Below are positions 37,191 to 64,000 of a DNA stretch of 64,000 nucleotides, in pieces. Numbering within the stretch: the first letter of the stretch is position 1; every line of letters begins with the position of its first letter. The translations under genes and the position numbers were made by a program. The stretch lies in contig CAZJVM010000004.1 of NCBI GenBank assembly GCA_964549305.1, positions 13,205 to 77,204 on the forward strand, given 5' to 3'. The notes below the pieces were generated by a model. The model worked only from the letters and a program-made list of their open reading frames with translations. It ran no database searches and was not told the origin of the DNA. The DNA is from an uncultured bacterium. Lineage in GTDB: Bacteria > Schekmanbacteria > GWA2-38-11 > J061.

Positions 37191-37359
37191 CTTATGAACA
37201 ATAAAAATTTAAAAAGTCAAGGCAAAGCTCACTTTATACAGGAGTTTTTTAGTCCTGTATAAATATAAAAACGAGACATTTCTAATTTGCCTTTACAAAT
37301 TTTAAAAAAAAGTTTGACATTTCTGAGCCATTTATGTAAATGCCACGGAGAAACTGTAA

Positions 37360-37460
37360 ACAACTCCGAATTCAGTTACCTAATGTGCAGTTGCACGATG
37401 GTGCGGAATCGATAGGGTTATGCCGGAAACAGCATAGCCTCCCGTATTTGGAAAGGAGAA
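37360..37460 (+). ncRNA. Moco/Tuco RNA motif (putative molybdenum/tungsten cofactor riboswitch)
   Basis: Landmarks ACUCCGA...CCUAA...GAUGGU...UAGGG...GAAA-tetraloop P4 (37416-37439)...GCCUCCC...UGGAAAGGAG; P1 CUCC/GGAG covers the SD; lies upstream of tungstate transporter genes. Confidence 0.85.
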
Positions 37461-37465
37461 AAAAT

Positions 37466-37492
37466 ATGTTTTTTCACATTAGAAGCCGGTAA
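37466..37492 (+). CDS. Putative 8-aa leader peptide MFFHIRSR
   Basis: ATG 7 nt after the riboswitch SD (AAGGAG 37453-37458); its TAA lies in the 5' arm of the terminator. Confidence 0.5.
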   Translation: MFFHIRSR

Positions 37493-37524
37493 ACTGCTAA
37501 ACAGATTGCCGGCTTTTCTTTTTT
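37481..37524 (+). terminator. Intrinsic terminator/attenuator in the porin-tupABC leader
   Basis: agaagccggtaa (37481-92) pairs with ttgccggctttt (37506-17), followed by ctttttt. Confidence 0.8.
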
Positions 37525-37622
37525 AAGTCCTGCCGTACAAAAAATAATAAACTCACTTTCTGTTATTTCAGTTTTAATTTTAAAACTTACAAACCATTTA
37601 ATGTAAATGAGGAGGACCGTTT

Positions 37623-39110
37623 ATGAAAAGATATTTCAAGGCAGTTTTGTTATCAGCAGTATTCATTATATTATCGCCATTTTCATCATTTGCAGGGCAG
37701 AGCAGTCAGATAGAAGAACTCAAACAGCAGATGGAATCACTTAAACAGGAATATGAAGATAAATTCCAGCTTCTGCTTAACAAAATTGATGAGCTTAAAT
37801 CCCAGCAGGAAGCAAAAGATAATGAAAACAGAGAAAGAATTAAAAAAGAAGTTGAAAATATAAAAGCTGTTGCCGTGCAGAAAGATGAGGAAAGAAAAAA
37901 AGAAATCACAGATCTCAAAACTGCGCTTGAAGAACAAAAGAAAAAATCACTGCTTGCCGGCTTTGACGGAAAACACTTTACCCTTGGAAGTGCAGACGGC
38001 AACTTCAAACTTAATCTCGGCGGATATATGCAGACGGATTACCGCTACTATGAAGGCGGAGAAGACGCAAATAATAAAAACACCTTTGATGTAAGAAGAG
38101 CAAGACTTACTGCAAGCGGCAATATGTCTAAAAACATAAAGTACAAACTTCAGGCGGATTTCTCCGACGAGGTTGACGAGCTTCGCGATGCTTATGTAGA
38201 TTTAAACTACACTCCTTTAGCTGTCGTACGTGCAGGTCAGTTCAAAGTACCTTTTGGCTATGAGCAGGTAACATCTTCGACTACATTTGACTTTATAGAG
38301 CGTTCCGTTGCAGGCAATTTCATCGCCTCAACATCAAGAGATATAGGAGTAATGGTATTCGGTTCAGTCCTTGATAAACGCATTAATTACTACCTCGGAG
38401 CGTTTAACGGAACAGGTGAGAACATGACAGATGACAACGACAGCCTTACTTTCATAGGAAGACTTCTCTTTTCTCCATTTGCGGATAATGAAGATTCCGT
38501 ACTTCAGGGCCTGACATTCGGCGGTTCATTCTCCGGCGGAGACAGAGAAGCACACAGTTCAAGATCAATTACTCTTGCAGCATTAAATAAAATATCCAAC
38601 ACTGTAACCGTCAACGGACAGCGCACGAGAGCAGCAGCCGAAGCAAGATACTTCAACGGACCTTTTTCCCTTAAAGGCGAGTATTACTACCAGAGAGAGG
38701 AAAGAAACAACATTGGTGGCACTGATTTCGAAGATCTCATCACGCAGGGTTTTTACGGCATAGCAACATACGTTCTTACAGGTGAAAAGAAGGTCGACAA
38801 CGCAAATATCGTTCCTACGCACAACTTCAACCCTTCAACAGGCGAATGGGGCGCATTCGAGCTTGCGACAAGATACTCCTATTTTGACCTTGATAAAGCA
38901 AGCGGCACGGACCCTGTGCTTACAGATGAAAATATTGCGGCAAATACAGTTCAGGGCGTCACATTCGCGCTTAACTGGTATTTCAACAAATACCTGAAGC
39001 TTATGGCTGATTATTCCTTCTTCGATTTTGACAGGCAGGAGAACCTCTCACATCCTTCAATCGGAGACTCGACAAATCAGTTTTCCGCGCGCCTTCAGGT
39101 TAAGTTTTAA
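37623..39110 (+). CDS. OprO/OprP-family anion-selective porin with N-terminal coiled coil
   Basis: Signal peptide; FDVRRARL, LRDAYV, GQFKVPFG.E, FIERS, GAFELATRYS, LNWY; ends in Phe (QVKF). Confidence 0.85.
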   Translation: MKRYFKAVLLSAVFIILSPFSSFAGQSSQIEELKQQMESLKQEYEDKFQLLLNKIDELKSQQEAKDNENRERIKKEVENIKAVAVQKDEERKKEITDLKTALEEQKKKSLLAGFDGKHFTLGSADGNFKLNLGGYMQTDYRYYEGGEDANNKNTFDVRRARLTASGNMSKNIKYKLQADFSDEVDELRDAYVDLNYTPLAVVRAGQFKVPFGYEQVTSSTTFDFIERSVAGNFIASTSRDIGVMVFGSVLDKRINYYLGAFNGTGENMTDDNDSLTFIGRLLFSPFADNEDSVLQGLTFGGSFSGGDREAHSSRSITLAALNKISNTVTVNGQRTRAAAEARYFNGPFSLKGEYYYQREERNNIGGTDFEDLITQGFYGIATYVLTGEKKVDNANIVPTHNFNPSTGEWGAFELATRYSYFDLDKASGTDPVLTDENIAANTVQGVTFALNWYFNKYLKLMADYSFFDFDRQENLSHPSIGDSTNQFSARLQVKF

Positions 39111-39141: not shown

Positions 39142-39972
39142 ATGAAAATAAGATATAGATTTAATATCTTTTCAATTACTGTAATATTCGTTTTTGCTTT
39201 CGCTCTGCTATTTACTGCGCAGGTCAAGGCGGAAACAAGACTTAAAATGAGCACCACGACAAGCACTGAAAACTCAGGGCTGCTCTCTGTCCTTATCCCC
39301 CCCTTCGAAAAGGATAACGGTATTAAAGTGGATGTAATTGCCGTCGGGACAGGAGCAGCTTTGAAGCTTGGAGAAAACGGAGATGTAGATGTCGTCTTTG
39401 TCCATTCACGCCCTGATGAAGATAAATTTGTCAGCGACGGGTTCGGAGTTTACCGTAAGGACGTTATGCACAATGATTTTGTAGTATTAGGTCCAAAAAA
39501 AGACCCTGCCGGGGTAAAGGGTTCGGTTTCAGCCTCAGAAGCTTTCAAAAAAATCTCTGAAACAGCATCACCATTTGTCTCAAGGGGCGACAATTCAGGC
39601 ACCCACAAGAAGGAATTAATTGTATGGAAAAGTGCCGGAATTGACCCGAAAGGCAAATGGTATATAGAGGCAGGTCAGGGAATGGGTGCCGTTCTTCAGA
39701 TAGCAGATGAAAAGCAGGGCTACACACTTTCAGACAGAGGAACGTATCTTGCCTACAAGGATAAAATAGATATCTCAATAGTTTTTGAAGGAGATAAGGC
39801 ATTATTCAATCCTTACGGGATTATTGCAGTTAACCCTGAAAAACATCCGCATACTAAGTTTGAACTTGCAAAAAAACTGGTTGATTTTATAACCGGTCCC
39901 AAGGGTCAGAAAATTATAAAAGATTTTAAAATTAACGGCGAACAGCTTTTTTATCCCGATGCTGTTAAATAA
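39142..39972 (+). CDS. tupA: Tungstate ABC transporter substrate-binding protein
   Basis: TTTS signature (MSTTTSTENSGLL), AVGTGAAL, SRGDNSGTH, GQGMG, YTLSDRGT. Confidence 0.93.
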   Translation: MKIRYRFNIFSITVIFVFAFALLFTAQVKAETRLKMSTTTSTENSGLLSVLIPPFEKDNGIKVDVIAVGTGAALKLGENGDVDVVFVHSRPDEDKFVSDGFGVYRKDVMHNDFVVLGPKKDPAGVKGSVSASEAFKKISETASPFVSRGDNSGTHKKELIVWKSAGIDPKGKWYIEAGQGMGAVLQIADEKQGYTLSDRGTYLAYKDKIDISIVFEGDKALFNPYGIIAVNPEKHPHTKFELAKKLVDFITGPKGQKIIKDFKINGEQLFYPDAVK

Positions 39973-40007: not shown

Positions 40008-40703
40008 ATGGGTTACTTTACAAAAACGCTTTATTCAGCTTTAAAGCTGATTTTTGAACTTGATAGTGAAACATATATTATAGTCTGGACATCACTGAAA
40101 GTATCCGTCTCTGCCACTTTTTTATCTTCACTCATAGGTATTCCTGCCGGTCTTTTTATCTCTCTTAAACGCTTCAGAGGAAAGCAGTTCATTCATCTTC
40201 TTTTAAATACTCTGATGGCTCTTCCTACTGTTGTTGTAGGGCTTTTCTTTTATGCCCTTTTGAGCAGGCAGGGTCTTTTGGGAAATTTCGGATTTCTGTA
40301 TTCGCAGGCAGGCATCATAATCGGCGAAACATTTCTCGCACTTCCCATAATTGCAAACTACACGGTTTCCGCTGTATCAGGCGCTGACTCGCGCCTTCTT
40401 ACAACCTGCAAATCTCTTGGCGCAACAGCAACTCAGCAGGCAATGTTATTTTTAAAAGAAGCAAGATTTGCAATCGTTGCGGCTGTTGTCGCAGGATTTG
40501 GGCGGGTAATCGCCGAGGTTGGAGTAGCAATGATGCTTGGAGGAAACATAAGGGGATTCACAAGGACAATGACAACTGCAATCGCCCTTCAAACAAGCAA
40601 GGGAGAATTTGAACTCGGGCTTGCTCTCGGAATTATGCTTCTCTCAACTGCATTTGCCGTCAATATCTTTTTATTCTTTTTTCAGAGAAATAAAAATGAG
40701 TGA
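40008..40703 (+). CDS. tupB: Tungstate ABC transporter permease
   Basis: LMALPTVVVGL, GFGRVIAEVG..MMLGGNIRGFTRTMTTAIAL. Confidence 0.93.
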   Translation: MGYFTKTLYSALKLIFELDSETYIIVWTSLKVSVSATFLSSLIGIPAGLFISLKRFRGKQFIHLLLNTLMALPTVVVGLFFYALLSRQGLLGNFGFLYSQAGIIIGETFLALPIIANYTVSAVSGADSRLLTTCKSLGATATQQAMLFLKEARFAIVAAVVAGFGRVIAEVGVAMMLGGNIRGFTRTMTTAIALQTSKGEFELGLALGIMLLSTAFAVNIFLFFFQRNKNE

Positions 40704-41691
40704 TATCTACATATTAAAAAATATCATCTGCAAGTACGGTGAGGAGGTTGTACTAAATATTCCGGCCCTTAAAATTGCGGAAGGAAAAATTACGGCAATC
40801 GTTGGCGCAAACGGTTCGGGGAAAACAACGCTTTTGCGACTCCTGTCCTTTCTTGATTTCCCCTTGTCAGGTGATATTCTGTTTAAAGGAGAAAAGGCGG
40901 AAAAAGAGAATGTATTCGCGTTGAGACGGCGGATTGGACTCCTCCCGCAAAATCCCTATCTTTTTCATTCAACAGTACTTTCCAATGTTGAAACGGGATT
41001 GAAGATAAGAGGCATCCCCTCTGCGGAAAGAAGAAAGCTTGCCGAAGATTCTCTGAAAAAAATCGGACTTTCAGGATTTGAAAAAAGAATGGCTCATAAG
41101 CTTTCGGGCGGTGAGGGACAGAGAGTCGCCCTTGCGAGAACGATTTGCACAAACCCCGAAGTGCTGATTCTCGATGAACCGTCAACTTATATGGACAGAA
41201 ATAATATTATACGTACTGAAAAACTCATCGATGAGTATAACAGGAAGGAAGGCAAAACAGTGGTATTCACCACACAGGATTTACACCGCGCGCAGGCAAC
41301 GGCAGACATAGTACTTACTCTTTTCAGAGGTAATCTCATCACCGCGTCTCTTGCAAATCTCTTCCACGGTAAAATCACAAATAACGGAACAACCTTTGAT
41401 ACGGGAAGGGCAAAAATTGAAATCACCTCACCCAAAGGGGATGAAGGACATCTCAGTATTGACCCCGCAAACATTGTAATATCAACAGAATCTCTCACAT
41501 CAAGTATGAGAAATTCCTTAAGGGGGAGAATCATCGCAGTAATCGAAGAGAGCGGAAAAGTAAGAATTGAAGTTGAAGCAGGAGAAAAGTTCCACGCTTA
41601 TATTACCAAGAAATCTCTCACTCTCCTTAATCTTCATATCGGTGATGAAGCGTGGATATCATTCAAGTCAACAGCAGTTGAGGTTTTTTGA
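40696..41691 (+). CDS. tupC: Tungstate ABC transporter ATPase with C-terminal TOBE domain
   Basis: GANGSGKTT, LSGGEGQRVALAR, LDEP; TOBE SSMRN...ITKKS...L...FKSTAV; ATG 40696 overlaps the tupB end. Confidence 0.9.
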   Translation: MSDIYILKNIICKYGEEVVLNIPALKIAEGKITAIVGANGSGKTTLLRLLSFLDFPLSGDILFKGEKAEKENVFALRRRIGLLPQNPYLFHSTVLSNVETGLKIRGIPSAERRKLAEDSLKKIGLSGFEKRMAHKLSGGEGQRVALARTICTNPEVLILDEPSTYMDRNNIIRTEKLIDEYNRKEGKTVVFTTQDLHRAQATADIVLTLFRGNLITASLANLFHGKITNNGTTFDTGRAKIEITSPKGDEGHLSIDPANIVISTESLTSSMRNSLRGRIIAVIEESGKVRIEVEAGEKFHAYITKKSLTLLNLHIGDEAWISFKSTAVEVF

Positions 41692-41721: not shown

Positions 41722-42396
41722 TCAATCCCTGCCTTTAATACAGGATCTGTATCCTAAATAAATCAGTATAATTCCCGTAAACTCAGTAATGTAGAGCATC
41801 TCAGTATATCCGAAGCGTGTAAATGTTCCGCCTATACCCGGCAGAAAACTTCCTATGGCAATCTCCACATTGCCTAAAAACCTGCTGAAGTGAAGTTCGT
41901 TTTTTCTGTACCGCCACGCAGATAATACAGCGCCTCCCACAAGCAGTACCATCGCGTAGATGTTTATCCAGGGGCTGAAAAGACGCACCCAACTCCAGAC
42001 AATAACCGCGCTGTTTAACCTGTTTGGCTCTACAAGCTCGTAATTAATGGGCGACATTGTAAGAAATAGGGAAGAAATGATGATATAGGGAACAATTATT
42101 CCCGTAAGAATATGAGCCGTTCTCCTTTTAAGTAGAAAATACGCCGTACCCTGCGCAAGAGGCGCACCACCTAAAAACGCTCCCACTATATACCAGCTTT
42201 TAAAAAGCGGCTCATTCCAGCCAAAAAGAGTGACTGACGATTCCGTGAGAGTTCCGAGTCCGAAGGTCAAAATTCCCAGCGACCACCAGAACAGATGAAG
42301 GCCTCCTTTTCTCAAATATCTCTTAAAAACTATGCCTGTAAAAATAAACGAAATTATTGTGGACAATATGGGAATATACGACGCGAGCTCTCTCAA
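41722..42396 (-). CDS. Hypothetical integral membrane protein (about 7 TM)
   Basis: Hydrophobic helices; TTG 42396 follows SD gaggagg. Confidence 0.7.
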   Translation of the reverse strand: MRELASYIPILSTIISFIFTGIVFKRYLRKGGLHLFWWSLGILTFGLGTLTESSVTLFGWNEPLFKSWYIVGAFLGGAPLAQGTAYFLLKRRTAHILTGIIVPYIIISSLFLTMSPINYELVEPNRLNSAVIVWSWVRLFSPWINIYAMVLLVGGAVLSAWRYRKNELHFSRFLGNVEIAIGSFLPGIGGTFTRFGYTEMLYITEFTGIILIYLGYRSCIKGRD

Positions 42397-42618
42397 TTTT
42401 TCATCCTCCTCTTGATTGTTTATCACTGTTATTAATCAGCATCGGACGTATTGAACATATATTTAATTTGTTCAGCTTGCTCTTAGAATGGAATCAGGCA
42501 GGAAAGTCAAGAAAATAAAAAAACCGGAAAAACTATTTCCGGGGAATTGACTATGAAAAGACAAGCATTTATAATTATTTGTAAGCAATCAATACTTTAA
42601 GAGATAGAGGATTTTAAA

Positions 42619-63572: not shown

Positions 63573-63687
<115 letters not shown>

Positions 63688-63727: not shown

Positions 63728-64000
<273 letters not shown>

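Follow-up and report, generated by a model that had tools for sequence, protein, structure and literature searches.

Riboswitches of the molybdenum cofactor (Moco) and tungsten cofactor (Tuco) class have been described with a ribosome-binding site (RBS) embedded in helix P1 or with an intrinsic terminator as expression platform, and variants without helix P3 were tied to tungsten-related genes as early as 2008 (Regulski et al., PMC2408646). Here we analyse a leader of this class that lies upstream of a porin gene and tupABC-like tungstate transporter genes in a 64,000-nucleotide (nt) stretch of contig CAZJVM010000004.1 from an uncultured bacterium of the Schekmanbacteria (the whole stretch is called the window, and its own coordinates are used throughout; the source genome, G000, has 2.94 Mb and is rated 100% complete). 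The leader resembles described members of the class (PMC2408646) in its P3-less aptamer and its position upstream of tupABC-like genes, and differs from them in that it holds both platforms, with a P1 RBS that would serve a frame of 5-8 codons in this leader and its relatives and not the regulated gene. We propose that it may be a P3-less OFF switch with a hybrid platform that places the porin-tupABC-like operon under ribosome-gated attenuation, a reading to which we give a probability of about 0.45.

In the leader-peptide attenuators of pyrBI, trp and his, a translated short frame with regulatory codons is combined with a 2:3 antiterminator and a pause site. Riboswitch-gated small upstream open reading frames (uORFs) have been reported in Mycobacterium tuberculosis for the B12 riboswitch of ppe2/metE (PMC11260477) and for the Mbox of pe20 (PMC12810186), and in the engineered RATEX converters a translational riboswitch for theophylline or B12 and a leader peptide together control transcription (PMC13285474). 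For the Moco class itself, the main-text account in PMC2408646 does not mention a leader open reading frame (ORF) of the kind described here, and its supplementary alignment (Fig. S4) could hold similar cases.

Aptamer, leader frame and terminator in the window

A first-pass annotation of this DNA, made from the sequence without database searches, had proposed a Moco/Tuco motif, and an Infernal search with the Rfam model RF01055 recovered it at positions 37352-37474 of the + strand (75.3 bits against a gathering score of 36, E 2.2e-16, model positions 1-135), as the sole Moco match in a whole-genome scan. In helix P1, CUCC (37364-67) pairs with GGAG (37455-58), and the columns of the P3 hairpin are deleted in the RF01055 alignment. 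Loss of P3 has been correlated with the tungsten cofactor in Moco RNAs (PMC2408646). Judged from the absence of P3 together with the tungsten-related genes, the aptamer is of the Tuco type, and selective binding of Moco or Tuco is predicted from its family membership. The association of the class with molybdenum and tungsten genes is also observed, since TupA-, TupB- and TupC-like genes lie downstream here and leaders of relatives precede TupA-like, ModA and 4Fe-4S genes.

The 3' strand of P1 contains the Shine-Dalgarno (SD)-like sequence AAGGAG (37453-37458, + strand, read from the sequence), which is followed after a 7-nt spacer by an ATG at 37466 that opens a leader mini-ORF of eight codons and a stop (ATG TTT TTT CAC ATT AGA AGC CGG TAA, encoding MFFHIRSR, 37466-37492, + strand). 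The first-pass annotation had given these same positions, and a base-by-base re-reading agrees with each of them, as well as with its view that the P1 SD does not serve the porin gene, which has an SD of its own (GAGGAGG, 37609-37615, + strand, read from the sequence) in front of its ATG at 37623. An SD-like sequence alone is no evidence of ribosome binding, because GGAAAGGAG belongs to the conserved aptamer core on any platform; that the mini-ORF is translated we infer from its sequence context. The frame is open upstream as far as an ATG at 37340 (+ strand), which gives a listed 50-aa ORF spanning the aptamer, and this ATG is probably not transcribed because it lies inside the putative -10 element described below. 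Two further elements around the AUG were considered and rejected: a hairpin at 37456-37475 is unconvincing (only -3.3 kcal/mol, with 16 of 200 shuffles equally good), and a longer outer P1 reaching over the AUG would rest on a duplex of the 5' flank with the AUG region that is not clearly distinct from shuffles (0.066, 0.544, 0.092 and 0.294 of the shuffles being at least as good).

An intrinsic terminator occupies 37481-37524 of the + strand, with a stem formed by 37481-92 and 37506-17 and a U-tract, TTTTCTTTTTT, at 37514-37524, whose first four U are paired at the base of the stem as well. The arms form 12 pairs, including two G-U, to which an inner 3-bp stem is added, and the hairpin folds at -20.1 kcal/mol, a value equalled by none of 200 shuffles (z -5.62). 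The last four codons of the mini-ORF (37481-37492) are exactly the 5' arm of this hairpin, as had been claimed from the letters alone; the 5' arm thus stands where the first-pass annotation had put it, and the 3' arm (37506-37517) is one base off the position that it implied. A simple terminator scan missed the hairpin because it limited loops to 3-8 nt.

One C is embedded in the U-tract of the terminator (UUUUCUUUUUU), which can thereby pair, G-U pairs included, with AAAGGAGAAAA in the 3' strand of P1 and the adjoining spacer; in the minimum-energy fold of the full leader, 37514-37524 is paired with 37452-37462. The embedded-C tail is also present in both leaders of the second genus introduced below (L008 and L017). 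Such pairing cannot act before termination; once that decision has been taken, it could hide the leader SD, or it could make the terminated RNA more stable.

Family leaders and the wider survey

The phylum is represented by five genomes in our collection, and Moco matches were found in all five (12 places in total). The family of the window's leader comprises four leaders from three genomes, namely that of the window, its ortholog in the same genus, which also precedes a porin gene, and two paralogous leaders in a second genus (G002), one before a TupA-like gene and the other (L017) before a gene for an exosortase-dependent surface protein; three downstream contexts are therefore found among the four leaders (porin twice, tupA-like, surface protein). 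In all of them an ATG stands 5, 7, 7 or 8 nt after GGAG and opens a frame of 5-8 codons, encoding MFFHIRSR in the window and MFLLN, MFSPS and MDISI (five codons each) in the relatives. This frame overlaps or abuts a terminator in four of four leaders: the stop codon of the window's leader lies at the top of the 5' arm, and those of the three relatives either precede the computed stem start by 1 nt or overlap the first bases of the stem. The computed family terminators range from -13.8 to -19.0 kcal/mol, and their stems begin 22-27 nt past GGAG and 17-20 nt past the A of the AUG.

The spacers of these leaders vary in both length and sequence, and the ATG persists through the spacer indels. Between the two G002 paralogs about 4 of 12 bases within the frame are identical when read by eye, yet both have retained the ATG, the in-frame TAG and a frame of the same length. 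Beyond the initial M, and an F found in three of them, the family peptides have nothing in common, and they show neither regulatory codons nor a conserved peptide. The consensus fold, which is based on only these four related sequences, contains P1, P2, P4 and P5 of the aptamer and the terminator (43 pairs, 7 changed on both sides) and includes no conserved alternative helix; the terminator helix is kept in all four leaders, and 4 of its pairs are changed on both sides. More relatives were sought in metagenomes, where the DNA pattern common to the four family aptamers matched 0 stretches, and a metagenome search with the porin protein gave 172 pattern matches, none of which was confirmed by tblastn.

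Several observations were made on individual leaders of the phylum. The surface protein whose gene lies about 230 nt past the riboswitch and terminator of L017 (G002, contig C6) belongs to the XDD4 family (NF045504, 172.7 bits), an odd target for a tungsten-cofactor riboswitch. In a sister family, tandem Moco aptamers (L020/L021, G004:C41:3629-3943) are located upstream of a TupA-like gene, the first of them with GGCG in place of the GGAG of P1 in a region that is partly N-masked. At L019 (G004:C41:554-679), also of the sister family, a riboswitch and terminator without an ORF precede a homolog of the coiled-coil porin, which implies that the link between porin and Tuco riboswitch is older than the mini-ORF. 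One sister-family leader has a TTG start whose frame reads through the terminator. Two others, without an ATG, carry a strong anti-P1 CCUUUUC in the 5' arm that is complementary to GGAAAGG of the P1 3' strand, and this is a classical antiterminator.

An exact-pattern scan of one genome per species gave at least 120 stretches, which together with earlier loci made up 139 leader instances by regular expression (138 unique, a few of which may be chance matches); leaders with a stem start within 45 nt of GGAG and no long ORF were counted as terminator-type. Among the 138 leaders listed, 62 are terminator-type, a long ORF begins 4-12 nt after GGAG in 24, both features occur in 4 and neither in 48, and in 22 of the 28 listed leaders with a long ORF the gene start lies 5-8 nt after GGAG, the same place as the ATGs of the family. 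The first-pass statement that Moco RNAs usually carry the SD of the downstream gene in P1 is overstated, considering that terminator-type leaders (62/138) outnumber those with a P1 SD and a gene start (28/138) among the leaders listed. An ATG at 5-8 nt was found in 5 of the 58 non-family terminator-type leaders listed (8.6%), against a background expectation of 7.7% (local ATG frequency, 52 of 2610 positions). The complete geometry of ATG, short frame and terminator was present in none of these 58 listed leaders and in all four of the family, which indicates that the mini-ORF is specific to the family and not a general property of terminator-type Moco riboswitches. The same design was also looked for at other riboswitch classes of the window's genome and discarded: a search for thiamine pyrophosphate riboswitches gave no match in this genome, and two cobalamin riboswitches, on contigs C147 and C115, have ordinary platforms, one with a terminator and one of the SD type.

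The potential for a conventional RNA antiterminator was examined with two proxies. For the ensemble proxy, the RNA was folded up to the terminator loop and the free energy gained when the 5' arm was allowed to pair upstream was recorded. Among the start-less leaders listed (n=39) the median gain was -7.7 kcal/mol, with pairing mostly to the P1 3' strand and a few bases beyond it, whereas the four family leaders gained -4.2, -6.3, -1.7 and -0.7 kcal/mol with scattered partners or none (Mann-Whitney p 0.009, the four family leaders being kin); the two G002 leaders (-0.7 and -1.7 kcal/mol) were weaker than at least 38 of the 39. When the upstream context was trimmed to the aptamer, values of -3.8, -3.8, -2.8 and -3.6 were obtained for the family and of -10.5, -8.5, -7.5, -4.4 and -1.6 for the sister family. 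The duplex that the 3' strand of P1 can form with the 5' arm and loop amounted to -3.1, -2.4, -5.9 and -4.7 kcal/mol in the family, compared with a median of -9.95 in 40 start-less leaders. By these imperfect proxies, an RNA antiterminator in the family leaders appears weak or undetectable. A general link between weak antiterminators and ATGs outside the family was dropped after inspection of L024, L031, L124, L132, L136 and L138, which are ordinary platforms because their 5' arms hold an anti-P1 of the CCUCCUUU or CUUUCC type.

Ribosome-gated attenuation and rival explanations

The aptamer, the frame, the terminator and the genes downstream are present in the window, and their geometry is conserved within the family; the mechanism that we consider would connect them as follows. 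When the cofactor is scarce, P1 would be open and GGAG (37455-58) free, such that a ribosome could load on the leader AUG at 37466. While translating and then terminating on the 8-codon frame, this ribosome would cover 37481-92, the 5' arm of the terminator, so that formation of the hairpin would be blocked and RNA polymerase would read into the porin and transporter genes. When the cofactor is bound, P1 would close on GGAG, no ribosome would load, the hairpin would form and transcription would stop near 37520. A ribosome with a stop codon in its A site is expected, given the size of its footprint, to cover most or all of the 5' arm; with 17-20 nt from the A of the AUG to the stem start, the geometry of the family fits such occlusion. 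In Escherichia coli, a terminator placed a few bp past a stop codon was almost fully repressed by the terminating ribosome (PMC4824070). By extension, the family might have swapped the RNA antiterminator of Tuco riboswitches for a natural converter of translation into transcription, in which an arbitrary frame of 5-8 codons brings a terminating ribosome to mask the 5' arm and sensor and terminator need no sequence overlap, an idea that we put forward tentatively.

Several points weigh against ribosome-gated attenuation, timing being the main objection. In E. coli, translation reduced the efficiency of a terminator located 30 bp past the start codon by only about 10%, initiation taking 1-2 s and the polymerase being by then 20-40 nt ahead (PMC4824070). 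Natural leader-peptide attenuators solve this problem by pause sites (PMC4824070), and a pause of RNA polymerase would be needed here as well, because no more than about 55-60 nt separate the AUG from the end of the U-tract and initiation is slow; U-runs follow the AUG in three of the four family leaders, and pausing is not inferable from them. The lack of peptide conservation fits pure ribosome occupancy, but it fits chance equally well. The four leaders, coming from three related genomes, are kin by descent and may represent perhaps about two independent observations, because three of them share AAUGUUUU. The sister family has the same aptamer plus terminators without the ORF, and none of its eight leaders has an ATG at the position in question. 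The proxies are themselves imperfect, considering that the duplex measure places 13 of 62 non-family leaders at the weak level of the family and that the sister-family leaders L019 (-1.6) and L018 (-4.4) are also weak by the ensemble measure.

Two parts of the first-pass annotation are to be read in this light. Its expectation that homologous leaders would conserve the arrangement of SD, short ORF and terminator holds within the family (4/4) and fails beyond it (0/8 sister-family ATGs, and 0/58 elsewhere among the leaders listed). Its proposal that a ribosome blocks the terminator gains from the family geometry (4/4) and from the weak antiterminator proxies, whereas the causal step, namely that the ribosome arrives in time and suppresses termination, is one that we infer from the layout, and the E. 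coli kinetics are adverse to it.

An OFF riboswitch working at the level of RNA only, in which the closing of P1 would compete with an alternative fold invisible to the proxies, is another reading, and one that the kinetic data favour for decisions taken near a start codon (PMC4824070). Moco platforms of the terminator type have been described (PMC2408646), they are the commonest among the leaders listed (62/138), and the sister family manages with terminators and no ORF. The ATG and its frame would then be an inherited by-product of an A/U-rich spacer, which does not agree well with an ATG at 5-8 nt in 4/4 leaders against 8.6% elsewhere among those listed, or with its survival through spacer indels and a scrambled frame body. 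With regard to the alternative fold, the 13 non-family leaders mentioned above, in which P1 and the 5' arm are not clearly complementary, are presumably functional nonetheless; on the other hand, the 5' arm gains just -0.7 and -1.7 kcal/mol in the G002 leaders, and a consensus fold without a conserved alternative helix offers no candidate. A 6-bp helix joining the P4 tip (UGCYGG) to the CCGG core of the 5' arm can be drawn by hand in 4/4 leaders, but its use would need the unfolding of a stable hairpin that is present with or without ligand. On these grounds we consider a purely RNA-based switch plausible, though less likely than ribosome-gated attenuation.

Riboswitch and terminator might also be uncoupled, the terminator being a constitutive partial attenuator and the riboswitch gating ribosome binding at the leader SD for mRNA stability or standby loading. 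No tight timing would be needed in that case, and the metA leader of Sinorhizobium meliloti offers a precedent, as a riboswitch SD and AUG1 are followed there by a validated terminator with no predictable riboswitch-driven antiterminator, the SD exerts its effect over a distance, and mRNA stability changes when the ligand binds (PMC9373788). However, the porin has a strong SD of its own about 150 nt further on, and it would be left unexplained why the stop codon of 4/4 leaders lies at the base of the stem or within the 5' arm, which makes an uncoupled arrangement rather improbable. Finally, a tug-of-war ON switch, in which the ligand-stabilised aptamer sterically blocks the adjoining terminator, would account for the lack of sequence overlap between aptamer and terminator, as in such designs, but was rejected as exceedingly improbable on spacing and on the sign of regulation, because spacers of about 0-4 nt are needed and longer ones are 'always OFF' (bioRxiv 10.64898/2026.06.17.733018), compared with 22-27 nt here, and an ON switch has the wrong sign for a tungstate importer.

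Operon context and comparison with known systems

A candidate promoter was read from the sequence at 37314-37342 of the + strand (TTGACA at 37314-19, a 17-nt spacer and TAAATG at 37337-42), from which a transcript start near 37349, directly 5' of the aptamer, is likely. The arrangement of TTGACA, 17 nt and TA is found at the equivalent place in all four family leaders, and the consensus promoter scan made no call at 37314-42 because the second hexamer lacks its final T. From 37525 to 37620 the same scan detected no sigma-70-like site on the + strand, in line with a porin gene that has no separate promoter in this interval, as the first-pass model had supposed. The operon encodes an outer-membrane porin of the Porin_O_P family with a coiled-coil N-terminal part (37623-39110, + strand; PF07396, E 1.1e-44), a TupA-like tungstate-binding protein (39142-39972, + strand; PBP_like_2, with NF041772 TupA as best match at 269 bits, below the equivalog cut-off of 400 bits), a TupB-like ABC permease (40008-40703, + strand; NF041773 at 199.5 bits with a cut-off of 320, and NF038017 at 227.9 bits with a cut-off of 100) and an ABC ATPase with a TOBE domain (TupC/WtpC-like, 40609-41691, + strand). 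The listed start of the ATPase is a TTG, and the true start is probably further downstream because the listed one overlaps tupB by 95 nt. For these Tup-like genes the NCBIfam tup models are the best matches yet stay under their equivalog cut-offs; together with PF07396 they bear out the predicted content of a porin and tupABC-like operon. The gene upstream of the leader encodes a flavodiiron-type protein and is transcribed divergently.

Directly after the transporter genes, a 234-aa ORF on the minus strand (41722-42426) has no Pfam or NCBIfam match, and at the edge of the window a 5S rRNA (63573-63685, 95.8 bits) and the 3' end of a 23S rRNA (63728-64000) are located on the minus strand. Among short contigs from four DNA sequencing runs, one (X2) shows 0 differences over 37458-37610 and another (X1) shows 2 over 37316-37474; the other aptamer-bearing contigs in these runs carry aptamers of other organisms.

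If the proposed coupling is true, it would be a third route by which a riboswitch reaches an intrinsic terminator, beside antiterminators based on sequence overlap and the steric tug-of-war, and a start and a stop codon beside a terminator would suffice to turn a translational platform into operon-wide transcriptional control. Leaders annotated as 'riboswitch plus terminator' could then not be presumed to be independent of the ribosome. If the coupling is not real, the locus would be an ordinary Tuco riboswitch and terminator before a tungstate-uptake operon that unusually starts with a porin. Within the literature searched, we found no case of a natural riboswitch that has been demonstrated to act on an intrinsic terminator via translation of a leader ORF.

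The leader-peptide attenuators of pyrBI, trp and his share with the window's leader a short frame beside an intrinsic terminator, and in them the position of a ribosome decides on the hairpin; the window's leader differs in that it has neither regulatory codons nor a 2:3 antiterminator hairpin, and the signal would be riboswitch-gated initiation instead of elongation speed. The SAM-II (S-adenosylmethionine) riboswitch leader of S. meliloti metA, as described in PMC9373788, is similar in having a riboswitch SD and AUG, a Rho-independent terminator within tens of nt and no predictable antiterminator, but its AUG1 is in frame with the gene and unused and its SD acts at a distance, whereas in the window a stop codon at the terminator ends the frame and the porin gene is provided with a separate SD. 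In the reported uORFs of M. tuberculosis (PMC11260477, PMC12810186), a translational platform gates an upstream ORF whose translation sets the expression of the downstream operon, as would be the case here; these uORFs act via Rho-dependent termination or termination-reinitiation, whereas in the window an intrinsic terminator overlaps the ORF and the peptide is not conserved. Another comparable system is RATEX, as presented in PMC13285474, in which a translational riboswitch before a leader peptide converts translational into transcriptional control. The RATEX devices are engineered, mostly based on tnaC and Rho, and use longer peptides that stall the ribosome; the leader of the window, if the ribosome indeed gates its terminator, would be the natural counterpart of such converters.
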